Of a stretch of DNA of 64,000 nucleotides, positions 24,186 to 40,050 are shown in pieces. Position numbers and translations under genes: made by a program. The notes beneath the pieces were generated by a model. It saw only the letters and a program-made list of their open reading frames with translations, was not told the origin of the DNA and searched no databases. How positions within the stretch are numbered: the stretch's first letter is position 1; the number at the start of each line of letters is the position of its first letter. Source of the stretch: a virus; the IMG/VR virus record IMGVR_UViG_3300005529_000029, positions 11,240 to 75,239 of that record; one strand, given 5' to 3'.

Positions 24186-24612
24186 GTCAGGTAATCGGAG
24201 CTCGGTCGTATTAGGTAACTACCTGATACTGCGCGAGTTACGGTCATTTTGATACGTCACTTCGACTAATTCACTCAAAAATGTCGAATAGACACACAGA
24301 TTTGTTACCTTCGGTGACGATTAACCAGAATCGGGTCAGTTCGACTCAAAACCGGTTAATTGACCGTCTTTAAACATATCCACTCGTCAGGTAATATCTT
24401 GATAAGTGTACATAATAAGACGTTTAGATACAGTAAGATAGGGATTATCTAGCGTAAGCTATTACAAATAAAGCGTTTATCGTGACTTATGGCATGACGG
24501 TTGTATATAAGGTAGGTGACTCTAAACGAGTTCGGTCTCTGACAATCCATTACCTATAAACCTGACTGTCTCATATTGTACGTCATTCTGACAGGAAAGA
24601 CGGTCAGGTAAT
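24186..24612 (+). repeat. Three dispersed copies of GTCAGGTAAT
   Basis: At 24186-24195, 24386-24395 and 24603-24612 within a 690-bp intergenic region. Confidence 0.8.
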
Positions 24613-24647
24613 GACAGGTGACTGGGTTCGACCGTTCTTTGACAATC
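24514..24647 (+). promoter_or_regulatory. Two tandem hairpin plus boxA-like units (nut / rrn-antitermination-like)
   Basis: AGGTGACT-hairpin-GGTCTCTGACAATC and AGGTGACT-hairpin-GTTCTTTGACAATC; boxA-like 12-mers at 24534 and 24634. Confidence 0.5.
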
Positions 24648-28695: not shown

Positions 28696-29016
28696 ATGGG
28701 CTATGAAACTTACCATCAACTCTACATTGACACCAATAATGAAGCCATCTGGAAGGCGATTGACGAGGATCCGACATATGCGGATGTCAAATATGCTGTC
28801 GGTTCTGATGGAACTAGCGGCGATAGCTGTAAATGGTATGACCACGAGGTAGATATGAGGCGCCTCTCGGCCCAATTTCCAGATGTTCTTTTCACCCTTA
28901 ATGGCTCTGACGAAAATAACGAGGACATCTGGATCGAATACTATAAAGGCGGCAAGATGCAACGGTGTCCAGCCATAATCACTTTTGATGAGTACGATGA
29001 ATCAAAGCTAAGTTAA
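28696..29016 (+). CDS. Hypothetical phage protein
   Basis: CKWYDHEVDMRRLSAQFPDVLFTLNG motif; AAGGAG RBS. Confidence 0.8.
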   Translation: MGYETYHQLYIDTNNEAIWKAIDEDPTYADVKYAVGSDGTSGDSCKWYDHEVDMRRLSAQFPDVLFTLNGSDENNEDIWIEYYKGGKMQRCPAIITFDEYDESKLS

Positions 29017-29027
29017 GGAGCAATTCC

Positions 29028-29516
29028 ATGTCAAGCATTCTATTTAACCTAGGCGAATACAAACACTTTGAAGAGAAAAGCGATCTGCTTAAACATCTCT
29101 ACAACAGTTCGCGTCCATATACTCAGCAAGATTTGCCAGCGAGCGTGGGAGAATTTCTTTTTGAGCTTAACGCTGAAGCATATGCAGAAAGATATGCTGA
29201 GAACGCAGAGACCGGAAGTGAAATTGAAGAAGCGCGCGCCAATCTGTCATTTGATCCCTCTGATTATGACTTCGGCAAGGTCACTGACTGGAATAACCTG
29301 CTTCAAATCTATGATCTTCTTAAGCGAATTCGTTATCAATGCGATGAATTCCACGAGGGACATCCCGCAATGGATCGCTATGAGATTCTTCAACTGATGA
29401 TAACTATCCTCTCTCAAGTGCTCATAAATAAGATGAAAGCCGGAAGTGAGTTTAACGACATTCCCGCTAAATACTATACGTTCTCGGCGGCGACTGACAA
29501 AGAAACCCTTTTTTGA
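29028..29516 (+). CDS. Hypothetical protein
   Basis: AAGGAG RBS. Confidence 0.75.
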   Translation: MSSILFNLGEYKHFEEKSDLLKHLYNSSRPYTQQDLPASVGEFLFELNAEAYAERYAENAETGSEIEEARANLSFDPSDYDFGKVTDWNNLLQIYDLLKRIRYQCDEFHEGHPAMDRYEILQLMITILSQVLINKMKAGSEFNDIPAKYYTFSAATDKETLF

Positions 29517-29536
29517 CCTTTTGGGGTATACATATT

Positions 29537-29965
29537 ATGCAAAATACAGCAGAATTGGATAAGAGTCTGACAGACCATCCTGGAACTATTGGTGGTGGCG
29601 CCGTCGTCAAGGTCTGGAATGAACCTGAAGGCAAGTTCTACACGATCCAGCGTGAAGACAGTTCAACTTTCCGGCTTCAGATCTTCCATGATCGGCAAGC
29701 ATTAATCAACCGCCTTTCTGAGCTATTAGCAATCTTCAGAACGAAATTTGGAATACCTAAGAGCTGCGATCCTGGCGTTTATATTCGAGCATTAGGATAC
29801 CGAACTGCCGCAAACGACATTGAACACATCTCTGTGGCTCATCTTCTGCTACGGCTTCCAGAAATCTCTCCTGATGCTGCGGTAATTACCAATGACGATA
29901 TTAACGCCTGGCTTGAACCTCTCGGTCTCTATTTCGAGCCAAGGGAAAGTGAGCAATCCCAATGA
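29537..29965 (+). CDS. Hypothetical protein
   Basis: Open frame within the operon. Confidence 0.7.
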   Translation: MQNTAELDKSLTDHPGTIGGGAVVKVWNEPEGKFYTIQREDSSTFRLQIFHDRQALINRLSELLAIFRTKFGIPKSCDPGVYIRALGYRTAANDIEHISVAHLLLRLPEISPDAAVITNDDINAWLEPLGLYFEPRESEQSQ

Positions 29966-30156
29966 AGCCACTTTATGCAAATACCTGTGGTGATTGCGGG
30001 AACCGAATAATTTCCAAGTCTATCTGGACACTTCCATTGCTCTTAATTTGGCACGATCTCAACGTTCATGGACTTCTATTCACCGATGCCTGGAACCCTC
30101 GCAAGATCATCAGTCGCCACCATAAAACAAGACAACGAGAAAGAGAGGGCAAATAA
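29962..30156 (+). CDS. Hypothetical protein
   Basis: ATGA overlap. Confidence 0.55.
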   Translation: MKPLYANTCGDCGNRIISKSIWTLPLLLIWHDLNVHGLLFTDAWNPRKIISRHHKTRQREREGK

Positions 30157-30158
30157 TC

Positions 30159-30404
30159 ATGACCAAAGAACAAGAGATCGAGCAGGCAAGACGGCAATAT
30201 GACGCTTTAGGGCAATCATGTGATCGATTGCTTCAGGCTCAGATCAAAGCTCAATCAACCGGCAACTGGCCTCTCTTCAAGAAGATCAGGGATGCTCACT
30301 CGCGAGTGGTCCAGCGCCGGCGCTACCTGAAGGTTCTAATAGAAGTTTTACCAGGAATCCAGGGACAAGAGCCAAATCCGCGTTCAAAGTCTTTTTGGCG
30401 TTAA
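30159..30404 (+). CDS. Hypothetical protein
   Basis: GAGGG RBS; last gene before the promoter. Confidence 0.65.
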   Translation: MTKEQEIEQARRQYDALGQSCDRLLQAQIKAQSTGNWPLFKKIRDAHSRVVQRRRYLKVLIEVLPGIQGQEPNPRSKSFWR

Positions 30405-30411
30405 AGCTGAC

Positions 30412-30440
30412 TTGATTTTGTAAACATTTAGTGATATATT
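30412..30440 (+). promoter_or_regulatory. Sigma70-type promoter
   Basis: TTGATT (30412), 17 bp, TATATT (30435), with extended -10 TG. Confidence 0.7.
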
Positions 30441-30445
30441 AAGAC

Positions 30446-31218
30446 AATACCGGACATTTAAGCTCTAGAGCCGGTATTCAGCCTCAAGTTCGATTTCGGC
30501 GGAGTTCCAATGACAGGCAATCAGCAAATACACACACAGAGATTGTCCTCTGATTACCTGCTGGGACTCCGCTCTGAGTTTCCCCTGGCGGGAAGGTCTA
30601 TCCGAATCCATAAGCAAAGGAAAGGAGAGTGCGCATACAACCAGGTGGGCGCTATAGACTTCACCGATGTCCTGGGCATTTACGCGGAAAACTGCCGTAG
30701 TGGTTTCCCTGAGTCCAGATCGACATCTGCCGAGATGCGTCCTGAAATGGTTTCTGGAGCTGTGATGCTTGAAAACGTAGAGCATCGCCAAGGGTTCACA
30801 GGCATGAGGTCGGTTGCTCGACCGGTTTGTGAGAATCGTAAATCCCCGCGCTCCATGGCCAAATTTAATCCCATAAGACTTTGGGATCGCACAACACTCT
30901 TTGACAAAGTGCCGGAGCTGGAATCCAGAGAAGTACACGCTGAAGTCTTGTAAAAGACGAGTCAGCCTGGAAACACAGTGAAATCGGCCACGTCTCAGGA
31001 ACAGAGCTCTTAAACTCACCTGAGGCCCATTTCGCCGTCATCGCGAACGGACACCGGAGAAAATAGTATCCGGGCCAAGCCGGTCTAACCACGGTAGCGA
31101 TGAGTCGGGCGACGTATGCGATTTTTTCGTTGACCATGTGATTACGACAAAGCAAGTAGTCGACAGTTTGGCTTTATATGGGAGATCGGACTATCGAAGC
31201 GGTCTCCCATCTTTTTTT
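30446..31218 (+). ncRNA. Putative large structured non-coding RNA (about 770 nt)
   Basis: Bounded by a promoter and a terminator; more than 12 hand-verified helices including nested and long-range pairs; no convincing CDS. Confidence 0.7.
31178..31218 (+). terminator. Intrinsic terminator
   Basis: ATGGGAGATCG / CGGTCTCCCAT stem followed by T7. Confidence 0.8.
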
Positions 31219-31284
31219 AATTTGCTTATGGATTTCGATAGACCGCACAAATCAAATTTCAATGGAGTCAGGAGACAGACCACC

Positions 31285-31491
31285 ATGCAAAGAACCGGCA
31301 AGTATATATGTTATTTCCTACAGAGTGATACGAACAAAGAATTTGACTCGCTGCAGTTAGCATTAGAGGCTGCGAGAAAATACGTGGGGAATGCTGCCTA
31401 TACTAAACCATTCCCACACGAAGAAACATATTTGTTCGGTCCTGGCGATGGTACAACTAGCGTCACAGTCCGGGAAAAAATCATATTCTAA
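31285..31491 (+). CDS. Hypothetical protein
   Basis: Likely start ATG 31285 after AGGAG; the upstream part of ORF 31138 runs through the terminator. Confidence 0.65.
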   Translation: MQRTGKYICYFLQSDTNKEFDSLQLALEAARKYVGNAAYTKPFPHEETYLFGPGDGTTSVTVREKIIF

Positions 31492-31505
31492 AATTAGAAG
31501 CACAT

Positions 31506-31928
31506 ATGTCCCAAACTATAGAGATTCTTGAAAAGCAGATCGAGGAGCTGAGGTTTCAGCTTCAACAAACGAAGGATCGTGAAGCGAGTCTCCTCAGATG
31601 GATTAAAGAGATTCGTGATTGGGTAGAGGAACAAGAGGCTTGTATCCAATGCGATGACTTTTTATATTGTGAAAAGCATGCATTCAATGGTTACAAGATC
31701 GATGTGATGGGTGCTTATGAGTCCTACCTGATGCTGCTCCAGAAGTTCAAGAAAGTATCATACAAAGCAAATCAGGCAATAGAGTTCCTAACCTGGCTCG
31801 ATGAGTTCATATCAAGCGAGACCGCTACAGTTCAGGCAATCTCCACCGTCGAACTAATTCGGGAGCGAGTAACACTGATCAAAGAACAGATGGAGTTTAA
31901 TGATGACACTTCAGCAAATAAAGGCTAG
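31506..31928 (+). CDS. Hypothetical protein
   Basis: 140 aa; coiled coil plus CxxC. Confidence 0.7.
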   Translation: MSQTIEILEKQIEELRFQLQQTKDREASLLRWIKEIRDWVEEQEACIQCDDFLYCEKHAFNGYKIDVMGAYESYLMLLQKFKKVSYKANQAIEFLTWLDEFISSETATVQAISTVELIRERVTLIKEQMEFNDDTSANKG

Positions 31929-32178
31929 AGAGCAGGTCGCTCACTTCTCTTTTGCCGACGTTAATAAGTGCTTTATCGCAATGGGATTTCATCACGTCAC
32001 AAGTATCTATGGTGGCATTCAGAGTGAAGCTGGGATCCATATCTATGCGAAGAATCGTTCCAGAATCCTGGCGATCAGGAATGGCAGCGACGGAATATGG
32101 TCATTCTATCACGAATCAGGCAAGGCATTTCTTGATCGAATGATCGGCGTTAAGAGTGAACTGGAGAAACTCACATGA
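31900..32178 (+). CDS. Hypothetical protein
   Basis: GGAG RBS; overlap chain. Confidence 0.65.
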   Translation: MMTLQQIKAREQVAHFSFADVNKCFIAMGFHHVTSIYGGIQSEAGIHIYAKNRSRILAIRNGSDGIWSFYHESGKAFLDRMIGVKSELEKLT

Positions 32179-32396
32179 CAAAAGAGCAACTCGAGAAGTT
32201 TATTAAGATTCGCAACGAATCACCTTTCAATTCCAATATGCAATTTCAAATTGATGCTAATGCGGCCGGTTTCGATAACAAGGAATTAGGCGAAGCTCAG
32301 AAGATCGACTTCAATGATGGTTATGGATGGCAATGGATAACGCCCCATGGCCGCTTGATCGAGTCACCTGCAGGCCGGCTTACCCTCTTGAATTAG
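32175..32396 (+). CDS. Hypothetical protein
   Basis: ATGA overlap. Confidence 0.7.
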   Translation: MTKEQLEKFIKIRNESPFNSNMQFQIDANAAGFDNKELGEAQKIDFNDGYGWQWITPHGRLIESPAGRLTLLN

Positions 32397-32405
32397 GAGA
32401 CTGAT

Positions 32406-32747
32406 ATGAAAGACCTTGATGATTACCTGGCCCTGCAGAACAAAATCTTCAAATACTTTGGCTATCAAGAAGACTGGCGAGTTATTCCAATCGATGATCG
32501 ACGCCAGATGTATTGGTCAATCAACGGTCCTTTAGATTCTTCACAGACGGAGATTATATACCACCAGGACCGCGACACGGTAATCGCGCAGGATGGCAAT
32601 CACTATTGTGACACGCTTTACACTCAGCGCTTCTTACCAAAATGGGTCTATGAAGGTCCAGATTTTACCATGGTTGCAGTCAACACTCACGTAGATGGCA
32701 ATCAATTCCTTGCAATCTTTGATAACGCGAAACGAGTTCAGCTATAG
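32406..32747 (+). CDS. Hypothetical phage protein
   Basis: YFGYQEDWRVIPIDD...YTQRFLPKWVY; AGGAG RBS. Confidence 0.8.
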   Translation: MKDLDDYLALQNKIFKYFGYQEDWRVIPIDDRRQMYWSINGPLDSSQTEIIYHQDRDTVIAQDGNHYCDTLYTQRFLPKWVYEGPDFTMVAVNTHVDGNQFLAIFDNAKRVQL

Positions 32748-38166: not shown

Positions 38167-39810
38167 ATGTCGGCCATAATAGAAGTGCAAAAACCACAGC
38201 ATAGGAAAGAACGAGCTAACCCGGACTGGCCGGTTAAGGTCTACTCATATTGGATTGAGCCAATAGGCGATATCCCGGAATGGTTTTGGTTATTCCATGA
38301 TCATATGCAACTACTCTGGAACGATATGGTGATTGCGCATGATGCTTTTATTGACGAACGTGAATTCTCTGAAGAATCAGATGGGAAATGGGATACAGAT
38401 CGTAAACGGCTTGAATTCTCTGGCCTACGTGAGAAGCTCAAGAATGTGGCCAAGTCTAAAAAGGGTATTCTTCCTAGCTCATGCTATTATGAGGTTAGGG
38501 ATCGATTTCTCATCACGATGGGCAGATATTGGAATCCTGACTCCACACTAAAACGCAGACGAAACGAAACAAAGAATTTCGATCTTGGGCGACCTGGAAT
38601 GAAATTTGGTCGCAATAAAGTACTCATCCCACATGATTTGAATGCTGCAAATATCTCAACGTCTATTCTCTTTTCTAATAAAAAACCTCTCACCATTTTG
38701 CAGCGCACAAAACAACAGGGGCCGACGCGAGGAATTTTTGAGACACTCGGTTATAACTTTAACTTTCGCATCAATCTTCATCGGCCGATTCCAAATGGTA
38801 ATATCAAGCGTATCGCTATTGTCGGGGAAATGGTTAAACCATTTGGATGGCAGTGGCGACTGAACCTGACCATTGAAGAGCCACCAGTAAGACCTCAAAG
38901 GAAGAATGGTAGGGTTGCAGCAATCGACCTTGGATGGCGTTTAATGGACGATTGTATTCGAATAGGCGTGTTAGTTGATAACAGTGATAATGCTATTGAA
39001 CTATCCATTCCGCTGGATTTTGCGAATAATTCGCTAAGACGTCAAAGAGAGCATTTCATGGACGTGACCGATGCATGTCTTCCTATACATTCTATTCCAG
39101 ACATCTGGAAAGCTCAACAGGAGTCAGACCTCATCTTAGAAGTCTGCAAAAATCGTCTAACCGCTCTTATTCCTGAGCTTTTACCAAATAAGGTTGCATG
39201 GGATAAGGCTCGACATAAGAGTCTTATTAAGTTACTCAATACATTGCGGGAAGATCATCCAGAGAGTTCCGCAATTGCAGTTATAGAGCAGTGGCGTACG
39301 ACAAACTGGGTTCTACATAGAAGATGGCGGGCAGCATATGAACGATTCATGAGATGGAGGCGTGAAATCTACAGAGTCCTGGCTGCGGAGATTGCTTCTA
39401 CGTATGACGAGATCGTTTTAGAGGATCGTTTGAATCTAGCAGAGATGTCGAGAGACGAACAGGCACCACCAGCTATCAAAGCAAGTCAAAAATACCGACA
39501 CTGGACATCGCTTTATCTCTTTAAAGAATGCTTAAAATATGCGATGGATAAACAGCAAAAACTCATTATCGCGGGTAAAACTGCTTACTCAACAGCAACT
39601 TGCTCAACCTGTGATGGTAAGATTAATACCGATGCTTCACTCTATCTAACCTGTGCTAATGGGCATACCTTGGATCAGGATCTTAATGCAGCGCGAAACC
39701 TATTAAAATCATATCCAGAATGCGAGAGCCTCCCAGGGTTAGAGTCGCCGATTAGGCACTCGCAACTTTCTAAGTGCGTTAGGACGCTAAGTCTTTTAAA
39801 ATCACTATAA
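38167..39810 (+). CDS. cas12: Compact type V CRISPR effector (TnpB-derived, Cas12m / V-U1-like), 547 aa
   Basis: RuvC-I AAIDLGWR (D254), RuvC-II IVLED (E419), Zn finger C479xxC482...C496xxxH500, RuvC-III DQDLNAARNL (D505); array starts 9 bp after the stop. Confidence 0.9.
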   Translation: MSAIIEVQKPQHRKERANPDWPVKVYSYWIEPIGDIPEWFWLFHDHMQLLWNDMVIAHDAFIDEREFSEESDGKWDTDRKRLEFSGLREKLKNVAKSKKGILPSSCYYEVRDRFLITMGRYWNPDSTLKRRRNETKNFDLGRPGMKFGRNKVLIPHDLNAANISTSILFSNKKPLTILQRTKQQGPTRGIFETLGYNFNFRINLHRPIPNGNIKRIAIVGEMVKPFGWQWRLNLTIEEPPVRPQRKNGRVAAIDLGWRLMDDCIRIGVLVDNSDNAIELSIPLDFANNSLRRQREHFMDVTDACLPIHSIPDIWKAQQESDLILEVCKNRLTALIPELLPNKVAWDKARHKSLIKLLNTLREDHPESSAIAVIEQWRTTNWVLHRRWRAAYERFMRWRREIYRVLAAEIASTYDEIVLEDRLNLAEMSRDEQAPPAIKASQKYRHWTSLYLFKECLKYAMDKQQKLIIAGKTAYSTATCSTCDGKINTDASLYLTCANGHTLDQDLNAARNLLKSYPECESLPGLESPIRHSQLSKCVRTLSLLKSL

Positions 39811-39819
39811 ATTGCCGCT

Positions 39820-40050
39820 GTGACAACTCTTGCTCAACCGAGTCTCGGTTGAGACACTGCGCTGCCAATTCCTTGGCGGAAAGCTCAAAAAGTGACAACT
39901 CTTGCTCAACCGAGTCTCGGTTGAGACGTCTTGCCTCTGCTTCTCTCCTCGAGCCTTTCACTGGTGACAACTCTTGCTCAACCGAGTCTCGGTTGAGACA
40001 GCGGAGGACGCGAGCGACAGCCTACCCTAATCCGCGTGACAACTCTTGCT
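39820..40050 (+). CRISPR. CRISPR array: 3 identical 36-bp repeats plus a truncated fourth, three 36-bp spacers
   Basis: Repeat GTGACAACTCTTGCTCAACCGAGTCTCGGTTGAGAC at 39820, 39892 and 39964; 15-bp partial at 40036. Spacers 39856-39891, 39928-39963, 40000-40035. Confidence 0.97.

Follow-up and report, generated by a model that had tools for sequence, protein, structure and literature searches.

The element considered here lies on the plus strand at positions 30446-31218 of a window of 64,000 nucleotides (nt), the whole stretch of DNA that was analysed, which corresponds to bases 11240-75239 of the 75-kb linear virus record IMGVR_UViG_3300005529_000029 in IMG/VR (completeness estimate 79%). A sequence-only reading had described this promoter-to-terminator unit of about 770 nt as an ornate, multi-domain RNA, belonging to the GOLLD or ROOL class or to a new one. 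The explanation favoured here, which stands about evenly between right and wrong, is that of a moron-like early unit in which a translated small, basic and disordered protein is combined with regulatory RNA, and which serves as a checkpoint for the genes downstream. More likely than a new giant RNA is a small, odd gene whose RNA has regulatory folds, and on this explanation the hairpins belong to a messenger RNA (mRNA) as its regulatory parts instead of forming the domains of a giant ornate RNA. The features of the unit are the following (ORF, open reading frame; SD, Shine-Dalgarno sequence; bp, base pairs; z, folding-energy z-score):

30412-30440, plus strand: sigma-70-type promoter, TTGATT-17-TATATT, with an extended -10 (TG at 30432-33).
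30446-30478, plus strand: 5'-terminal hairpin with an 8-bp closing stem (AATACCGG/CCGGTATT) at the predicted transcript start, z -3.13.
30499-30572, plus strand: two-part hairpin of about 21 bp, -31.4 kcal/mol, enclosing GGAG (30501-04) and ATG (30510-12).
30510-30953, plus strand: ORF of 147 codons (product P0001) with an ATG start and a TAA stop (30951-53) inside a GTAA loop.
30595-30618, plus strand: left arm of an inverted repeat, GGTCTATCCGAATCCATAAGCAAA, in codons 29-37 of the ORF (patch IRxHKQxKG), with pairing extendable to 30627 against the U-tract of the terminator.
30868-30909, plus strand: hairpin ATCCCA/TGGGAT (30868-87), a 9-nt spacer and the boxA-like CTCTTTGACAA (30897-907).
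30939-30966, plus strand: hairpin GCTGA...TCAGC around GTCTT-GTAA-AAGAC, whose GNRA-type loop holds the stop codon of the ORF, z -3.03.
30954-31177, plus strand: ORF-free, G+C-rich (0.53-0.55) 3' region of 224 nt, with a hairpin at 30992-31026, a branched element at 31038-31103 and, ending near 31126, a weak hairpin followed by a T-run.
31178-31218, plus strand: intrinsic terminator with an 11-bp stem and an 11-nt loop (31178-31210), then CTTTTTTT (T7).
31221-31244, plus strand: right arm of the inverted repeat, 22/24 complementary to the left arm, directly 3' of the terminator and 26 nt before the next SD.

The earlier statement that the region holds no credible coding sequence did not survive, as an ATG ORF of 147 codons occupies 30510-30953, the GGAG at 30501-04 sits 5 nt ahead of its ATG, and the frame is kept in a homolog. 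Plus-strand ATG ORFs of at least 147 codons arose in 0.7% of 3000 dinucleotide-preserving shuffles of 30446-31284, and an SD-like motif precedes 27 of the 47 long ORFs of the phage compared with 11% of all ATGs. An exhaustive HMMER search, covering 1.84 billion representatives of approximately 15 billion predicted proteins, returned exactly one relative of P0001, namely P0003, a protein of 145 amino acids (aa) with an E value of 2e-12; it is encoded on a 995-bp ENA contig, and P0001 on a 102-kb contig. The two proteins align over residues 31-144 with 43% identity and two in-frame gaps, share their C-terminal end, and begin to resemble each other at the left arm of the inverted repeat. Both are basic, with isoelectric points of 8.9 in P0001 (16 Arg, 5 Lys) and 10.1 in P0003, and they have the conserved basic patch IRxHKQxKG in common. 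When neutral drift was simulated to an equal amino-acid identity, only 3-6% of the sequences stayed open, with insertions and deletions uncounted. A word-based profile search with both proteins through 5.8 billion clusters yielded no further relatives of similar length and no shorter fragments; no truncated relatives were found, and therefore there is no sign of hidden homologs with broken frames. Codon-level conservation of the ORF among homologs without covariation had been regarded beforehand as the outcome that would refute the RNA reading; the sole homolog keeps both frame and stop, which counts against a purely non-coding RNA.

Relatives were also sought at the DNA level. Neither blastn with the DNA nor tblastn with P0001 and P0003 matched anything among 50,697 phage records, scans with motifs back-translated from P0001, P0003 and their alignment gave nothing confirmed in IMG/VR, JGI metagenomes and GTDB genomes, and the use of neighbouring genes as synteny anchors in IMG/VR revealed no relatives. 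Because of its length, its SD and the retention of its frame in the only relative, the ORF is probably, with somewhat better than even confidence, translated into a small, basic, Arg-rich, unfolded and fast-evolving protein.

The signals that delimit the unit were largely borne out. The promoter TTGATT-17-TATATT is present at 30412-30440, with a TG two bases ahead of the -10 hexamer, and starts 8 nt past the stop codon (30402-04) of an upstream 81-aa gene. Promoter-like sites across the scanned region are only as numerous as expected by chance from shuffled sequence, so the match alone is weak, and the site is best called plausible, not proven. The intrinsic terminator at 31178-31218 is real and strong (hairpin -17.6 kcal/mol, z -3.15, T7 tail); in our own scan no other terminator-like site on the plus strand of the plus arm was as strong, and a standard scan overlooked it only because its loop is longer than the 8-nt limit. 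The loop, GGACTATCGAA, reproduces part of the inverted-repeat motif. Approximately 90 nt ahead of it, a weaker hairpin with a T6 run at 31121-31126 may be a tandem or partial terminator. The next gene encodes 68 aa and begins at ATG 31285 behind an SD at 31270-74. The consensus scan found no promoter-like site between the terminator and this gene (31219-31284), and none on the plus strand downstream of the unit up to approximately 39.5 kb; by that scan, the next gene therefore looks read-through-dependent. The unit also departs in composition, with a G+C content of 50.6% against 45.7% for the genome, and with a step to 0.50-0.55 over approximately 30500-31170, the ORF-free 3' part included, from 0.40-0.47 on both sides.

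The second line of evidence is the 24-nt inverted repeat, whose arms are complementary at 22 of 24 positions across a distance of 602 bp, with a chance expectation of 0.00 in the window. It is far beyond chance and marks a constraint at the RNA or DNA level. The right arm starts two bases past the T-run of the terminator and is therefore transcribed only on read-through. When 30446-31284 is folded, the repeat duplex is part of the minimum-free-energy structure with pair probabilities of 0.8-1.0; the duplex alone amounts to -32.4 kcal/mol and reaches approximately 30 bp when extended through the U-tract. An exact scan for further copies of the repeat in the window, IMG/VR and JGI metagenomes found none. 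The core GTCTAT/GACTAT is present in four copies (30596-30601, 30654-30659, 31189-31194 and 31238-31243), two in each orientation, and alternative pairings are open to both arms, to the left one locally with 30654-61 and to the right one with the loop of the terminator (31187-98 against 31234-45, 11/12).

A constraint of this kind might act on the DNA itself, with the repeats bordering either an invertible segment (30619-31220), the inversion of which could remove the sense-strand terminator and open the downstream genes, or a foreign insertion or module resembling a miniature inverted-repeat transposable element. The repeat, far beyond chance at 22/24 and 602 bp, would suit such an element, as would the start of the P0003 similarity at the left repeat and the G+C step, which roughly matches the segment. 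Long ORFs are also open in register on both strands; an antisense ORF of 184 codons (minus strand, 30465-31019) stands in exact codon register with the plus-strand ORF, and ORFs of at least 184 codons occurred antisense in 0.27% of the shuffles and both ORFs together in 0/3000. In-silico inversion fuses this minus-strand ORF in frame with the 68-aa gene into 223 codons ending at 31491, a frame match expected 1-in-3 by chance. An open antisense frame requires a plus-strand ORF free of TTA, CTA and TCA codons, and this ORF contains none of them. Against a DNA element, the antisense ORF lacks an SD, starts with GTG and scores worst in codon use. The 75-kb record, at its 79% completeness, encodes no serine or tyrosine recombinase (PF00239, PF00589), a target-site duplication is not visible, the low-depth contigs give no read support for an inverted orientation, and the lack of a second repeat copy in the window, IMG/VR and JGI metagenomes means that the element is not a multi-copy one. 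A DNA element is thus considered very improbable. At the inner edge of the left repeat, precisely at 30618, one X4 contig stops, which was treated as a coincidence at 3-6x depth.

The third line of evidence concerns the 3' part of the ORF. The block best conserved in P0003, WDxTTLFDKVPELExREV, corresponds to 30882-30953 and is almost invariant over its 72 nt; it overlaps the 3' arm of the hairpin at 30868-87, the boxA-like CTCTTTGACAA, two palindromes and the start of the GNRA hairpin, the arms of which are GTCTT (30945-49) and AAGAC (30954-58) around the loop GTAA. Apart from 30897, the window contains CTCTTTGACAA only at 24635, in the early leader, and a looser copy lies at 24535. On its plus strand the early arm has the boxA-like motifs GGTCTCTGACAA (24535), GTTCTTTGACAA (24635) and CTCTTTGACAA (30897). 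The stricter pattern YTCTYTGACAA has 2 occurrences against 0.2 expected. The two perfect 11-bp palindromes, CTTTGACAAAG (30899-909) and CTGGAATCCAG (30918-28), have their centres 19 bp apart and may be DNA-binding sites instead of RNA features.

Taken as a moron-like early unit, these parts could work together as follows. The self-contained unit, wedged between two small genes, would at the same time be a checkpoint before the genes that follow. Transcription from the extended -10 promoter would begin at approximately 30447 and would end at approximately 31218, at the arm's strongest terminator. The start of the ORF would be gated by the 21-bp hairpin that conceals its SD and ATG. The 3' block, composed of a hairpin, the boxA-like CUCUUUGACAA and the GNRA hairpin, could be a loading site on the nascent RNA of the kind known from nut sites and rrn leaders, which would let the polymerase pass the terminator, with the protein as a phage-specific factor comparable to lambda N. 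After read-through, the 24-nt sequence behind the terminator would pair with ORF codons 29-37, and the resulting RNase III-type duplex would separate the ORF mRNA from the message downstream, as a feedback comparable to lambda sib or to the rRNA leader-trailer helix.

Several observations weigh against this explanation, most of them concerning the ORF. Its composition-normalised codon score of -0.11 matches the average for 65 shadow ORFs (-0.10) and places it in the bottom tenth of the 99 ORFs presumed to be real, and a simpler codon score gives -0.007 compared with 0.075-0.31 in 14 neighbouring genes. At positions where P0001 and P0003 are not identical, just 7 of 60 residues are similar (12%; neutral drift gives 24%), and the mean BLOSUM62 score there is -0.77, compared with approximately -0.74 under neutral simulation; the substitutions look like random nucleotide drift, unlike purifying selection on a folded protein. 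AlphaFold2 with the two-sequence alignment reached a predicted local distance difference test (pLDDT) of 30.9 and a predicted template modelling (pTM) score of 0.17, and the ESM Atlas model a pLDDT of 0.27; as controls, a neighbouring 162-aa orphan gave a pLDDT of 59.6 and a pTM of 0.55 in AlphaFold2 without an alignment, and another neighbour a pLDDT of 0.56 in its ESM Atlas model. P0001 and P0003 have no relatives in Pfam, PHROG, NCBIfam or PDB, and in the same collections the ORF shows no sequence similarity to any N protein. The SD and ATG are buried in the -31.4 kcal/mol hairpin, and a structured 3' region of 224 nt is unusual for a phage gene. Moreover, the best-conserved protein block overlaps nucleotide motifs, and its conservation may therefore not reflect the protein. 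The N-like role, the boxA function and the RNase III cleavage are analogies, and CTCTTTGACAA at 30897 is called boxA-like by comparison with the general boxA consensus. The evidence against coding suits an unfolded basic protein that evolves fast nearly as well as it suits a non-coding frame, and the basic, Arg-rich composition fits either an Arg-rich unfolded protein or a translated non-coding frame. An NCBIfam 'ferredoxin' match was rejected as noise, at 14.9 bits against a cut-off of 163.

The same neutral-looking substitutions, together with the missing predicted fold, the atypical composition and the extreme rarity of relatives, could be read as signs of a decaying remnant, in which an acquired gene and its downstream sequence are drifting and the hairpins and repeats have lost their function. 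Decay is hardly compatible with a frame and stop retained at 43% identity, with an intact promoter, SD and terminator, with an almost invariant 72-nt block and a repeat still matching at 22/24, or with a phage sequence identical across four studies, and a remnant is accordingly ranked as the least probable of the explanations.

The structural claims of the sequence-only reading fared unevenly. All 13 of its hand-found helices are complementary as given, with 0-2 G-U pairs each, and the long-range helix 30491-97/30980-86 is among those with sound pairing, but it proved unstable in the ensemble. The local folds 30446-78, 30495-30576, 30590-30665, 30935-70 and 30988-31030 have z-scores of -3.1, -4.4, -3.1, -3.0 and -2.9, respectively, which are optimistic because the stretches were picked for pairing. 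The folding-energy z-score that had been proposed as a check came out as modestly unusual for the whole unit, at -2.96 with 20 shuffles or -2.5 with 12. Eleven adjacent, mostly coding segments of 773 nt ranged from +1.75 to -2.06, so the fold of the unit is the lowest of 12 segments, yet no outlier. The asserted preference for the plus strand was confirmed locally in three sub-domains; it was reversed in two, and the minus strand as a whole reaches z -2.86. For instance, the hairpin at 30499-30572 has z -4.41 on the plus strand and a comparable -4.80 on the minus strand. The fold is therefore somewhat better than chance, marginally better than that of the neighbours and, overall, not strand-specific.

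Known RNA families were sought with cmscan using all 4227 Rfam models, over the 64-kb window at the gathering score and over 30300-31350 at E ≤ 10. No match was obtained at the gathering score anywhere in the window, and the relaxed search of 30300-31350 gave only two chance-level matches to animal microRNA and long non-coding RNA models (E 3.7 and 7.1). The suggested membership of GOLLD or ROOL is thus rejected, with no covariance-model match even at E ≤ 10, and OLE, group I and group II introns and the other large Rfam RNAs were likewise ruled out, within the reach of covariance models, by the absence of a match across the 4227 models.

Whether the predicted pairs could persist in P0003 was assessed on base changes inferred by parsimony from its amino acids, using pairs predicted with a probability of at least 0.5. 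Of the informative pairs, 10/25 would still be possible, compared with 30% of 8691 arbitrary complementary position pairs. Pair retention under these inferred changes is not significant and, the power being small, would neither support nor refute the fold. The 5-bp helix 30628-32/30649-53 would be fully maintainable despite four radical amino-acid changes and includes an apparent swap from U-G to G-U, whereas the helices 30607-09/30619-21 and 30762-69/30781-88 would not be maintainable. In and next to the left arm of the inverted repeat, the inferred changes fall at 30597, 30607 and 30620-21.

These results bear on the possibility that the unit encodes a non-coding structured RNA of approximately 770 nt (approximately 600 if excised at the duplex), the founder of a new and very rare family, with the ORF as a chance or shadow frame and with a role such as that of a put-like, cis-acting antiterminator or of a stable regulatory RNA. 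Such an RNA would explain why the unit has its own promoter, its own terminator and a G+C excess, and it agrees with plus-strand hairpins at z -3 to -4.4 and with a unit z that is the lowest of 12 segments. The shadow-like codons, neutral-looking substitutions, lack of a predicted fold, buried start and long structured 3' region of the ORF would all be expected of it, the 24-nt repeat would be a trace of nucleotide-level selection within the ORF, and the helix 30628-32/30649-53 can be kept in P0003 despite the four radical changes. It is disfavoured by an ORF whose length and SD are very improbable in non-coding sequence, by a homolog that keeps frame and stop where drift would do so in 3-6% of cases, and by the absence of broken relatives. 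Furthermore, there is no Rfam match at E ≤ 10, the inferred changes leave 40% of the predicted pairs possible, not significantly more than the 30% of the null set, and the fold energy is not strand-specific and barely goes beyond that of coding neighbours. A non-coding RNA is hence a serious but doubtful alternative. The idea of a new giant RNA class, weakened by the sole homolog with its retained frame and stop, lives on as a minority view through the poor coding quality of the ORF.

A related account, which is unlikely although it deserves a place, sees a new, very rare large phage RNA of approximately 600-770 nt with two known members, the body of which is closed by the leader-trailer duplex of approximately 30 bp that forms only on read-through; the RNA would be either linear and terminated or, after antitermination, excised by RNase III as a structured RNA, and its frame would be open for the transit of ribosomes. 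This transit would then decide if the left arm is available for pairing. Both sets of evidence could be reconciled by a frame that is kept open for the passage of ribosomes instead of for its product.

The moron-like early unit has to be seen in the context of its phage, which carries the gene set of a tailed phage, including a Mu-type portal, large terminase, tail tube, sliding clamp, methylase and a Cas12f-like nuclease. Minus-strand late genes extend to approximately 21.5 kb and are followed by the long plus-strand arm; the terminase is only 30-38% identical to those of the nearest named phages. Seven DNA sequencing runs from four soil and mine studies contain the stretch, and there are no RNA sequencing runs among those listed. 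Contigs from four runs cover fragments of window positions 29000-32500 at 3-6x depth and are 100% identical to the phage, which thus appears widespread across independent soil and mine studies and, in the pieces seen, invariant. ARAGORN detected zero tRNA genes across the 64-kb window. Further along the arm, a complete three-domain DNA polymerase III beta sliding clamp is encoded by the phage at 36482-37630. The region 38167-40035 contains the gene of a 547-aa protein that has a Cas12f1-like TNB domain and, behind it, three copies of one 36-nt repeat (39820, 39892 and 39964) with spacers of 36 nt. No anti-repeat to the 36-nt repeat of this array of clustered regularly interspaced short palindromic repeats (CRISPR) was found in 30400-31300, where the longest match is 7 nt, and no self-targeting spacers were found in the phage CRISPR array.

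Among known systems, the layout is close in outline to the morons, autonomous promoter-gene-terminator units that Hendrix and colleagues described between the genes of HK97, HK022 and other lambdoid phages. The resemblance lies in the unit's own sigma-70-type promoter and terminator, its position between two co-directional operon genes and its deviant composition (0.50-0.55 compared with 0.40-0.47). It differs in its doubtful ORF, its long structured 3' region and a repeat that spans the terminator. In addition, the genes behind the unit have no promoter-like site, and it is therefore no neutral add-on, unlike a moron.

The lambda pL-nutL-N-tL1 module combines an early promoter with a large hairpin at the ribosome-binding site, a protein that is small, Arg-rich and unfolded, a boxA site on the nascent RNA and a terminator before the delayed genes. 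The binding of Nus factors to boxA is documented (PMC2800207; PMC2724277). The present unit likewise has an early promoter, a hairpin over the ribosome-binding site, a putative small basic Arg-rich protein predicted to be unfolded, a candidate boxA-like motif with hairpins, a terminator and promoterless-looking genes behind it. It has no similarity to N, it places the boxA-like motif in the 3' end of the ORF instead of in the leader, with the hairpin in front as in the rrn order, and any boxB equivalent in it would be hypothetical.

The retroregulation at lambda sib/tI depends on an RNase III substrate that is formed only in the extended transcript. The leader-trailer helix of rRNA is also an RNase III substrate (PMC10250234). 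The predicted duplex of 24-30 bp resembles both in forming only past the terminator and in enclosing approximately 600 nt like a processing stalk, but its arms are 600 nt apart, one of them lies within an ORF, and its cleavage is putative.

In phages and prophages, GOLLD and ROOL are often located near tRNA genes, although this is not strictly defining. They are large ornate RNAs of phages and prophages of approximately 600-800 nt (PMC5737381; bioRxiv 10.1101/2024.12.08.627333). The unit is similar to them in size, phage location and abundance of hairpins, and it differs in having no model match, no tRNA genes in the window, no homolog family from which covariation could be read, and a long ORF with an SD. 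The put RNAs of HK022 are cis-acting, RNA-only antiterminators of approximately 65-70 nt with two defined stem-loops. In the unit, too, an early promoter and a terminator enclose structured RNA, which would offer a mechanism if the ORF is untranslated, but the two put stem-loops were not recognised in it.

These comparisons also call for caution, since a G+C- and hairpin-rich promoter-to-terminator unit with a weak ORF is not automatically a giant non-coding RNA; such a reading is disfavoured here because the ORF statistics and the single homolog point the opposite way. If the moron-like early unit is the true explanation, it would be another orphan early unit from a soil phage that is uncultured, and its layout would be the main interest: a gated basic protein, a boxA-like block, the strongest terminator and a read-through-only duplex within 0.8 kb. 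It would amount to a compact antitermination system with built-in feedback, outside the lambdoid phages in which such circuits were defined.

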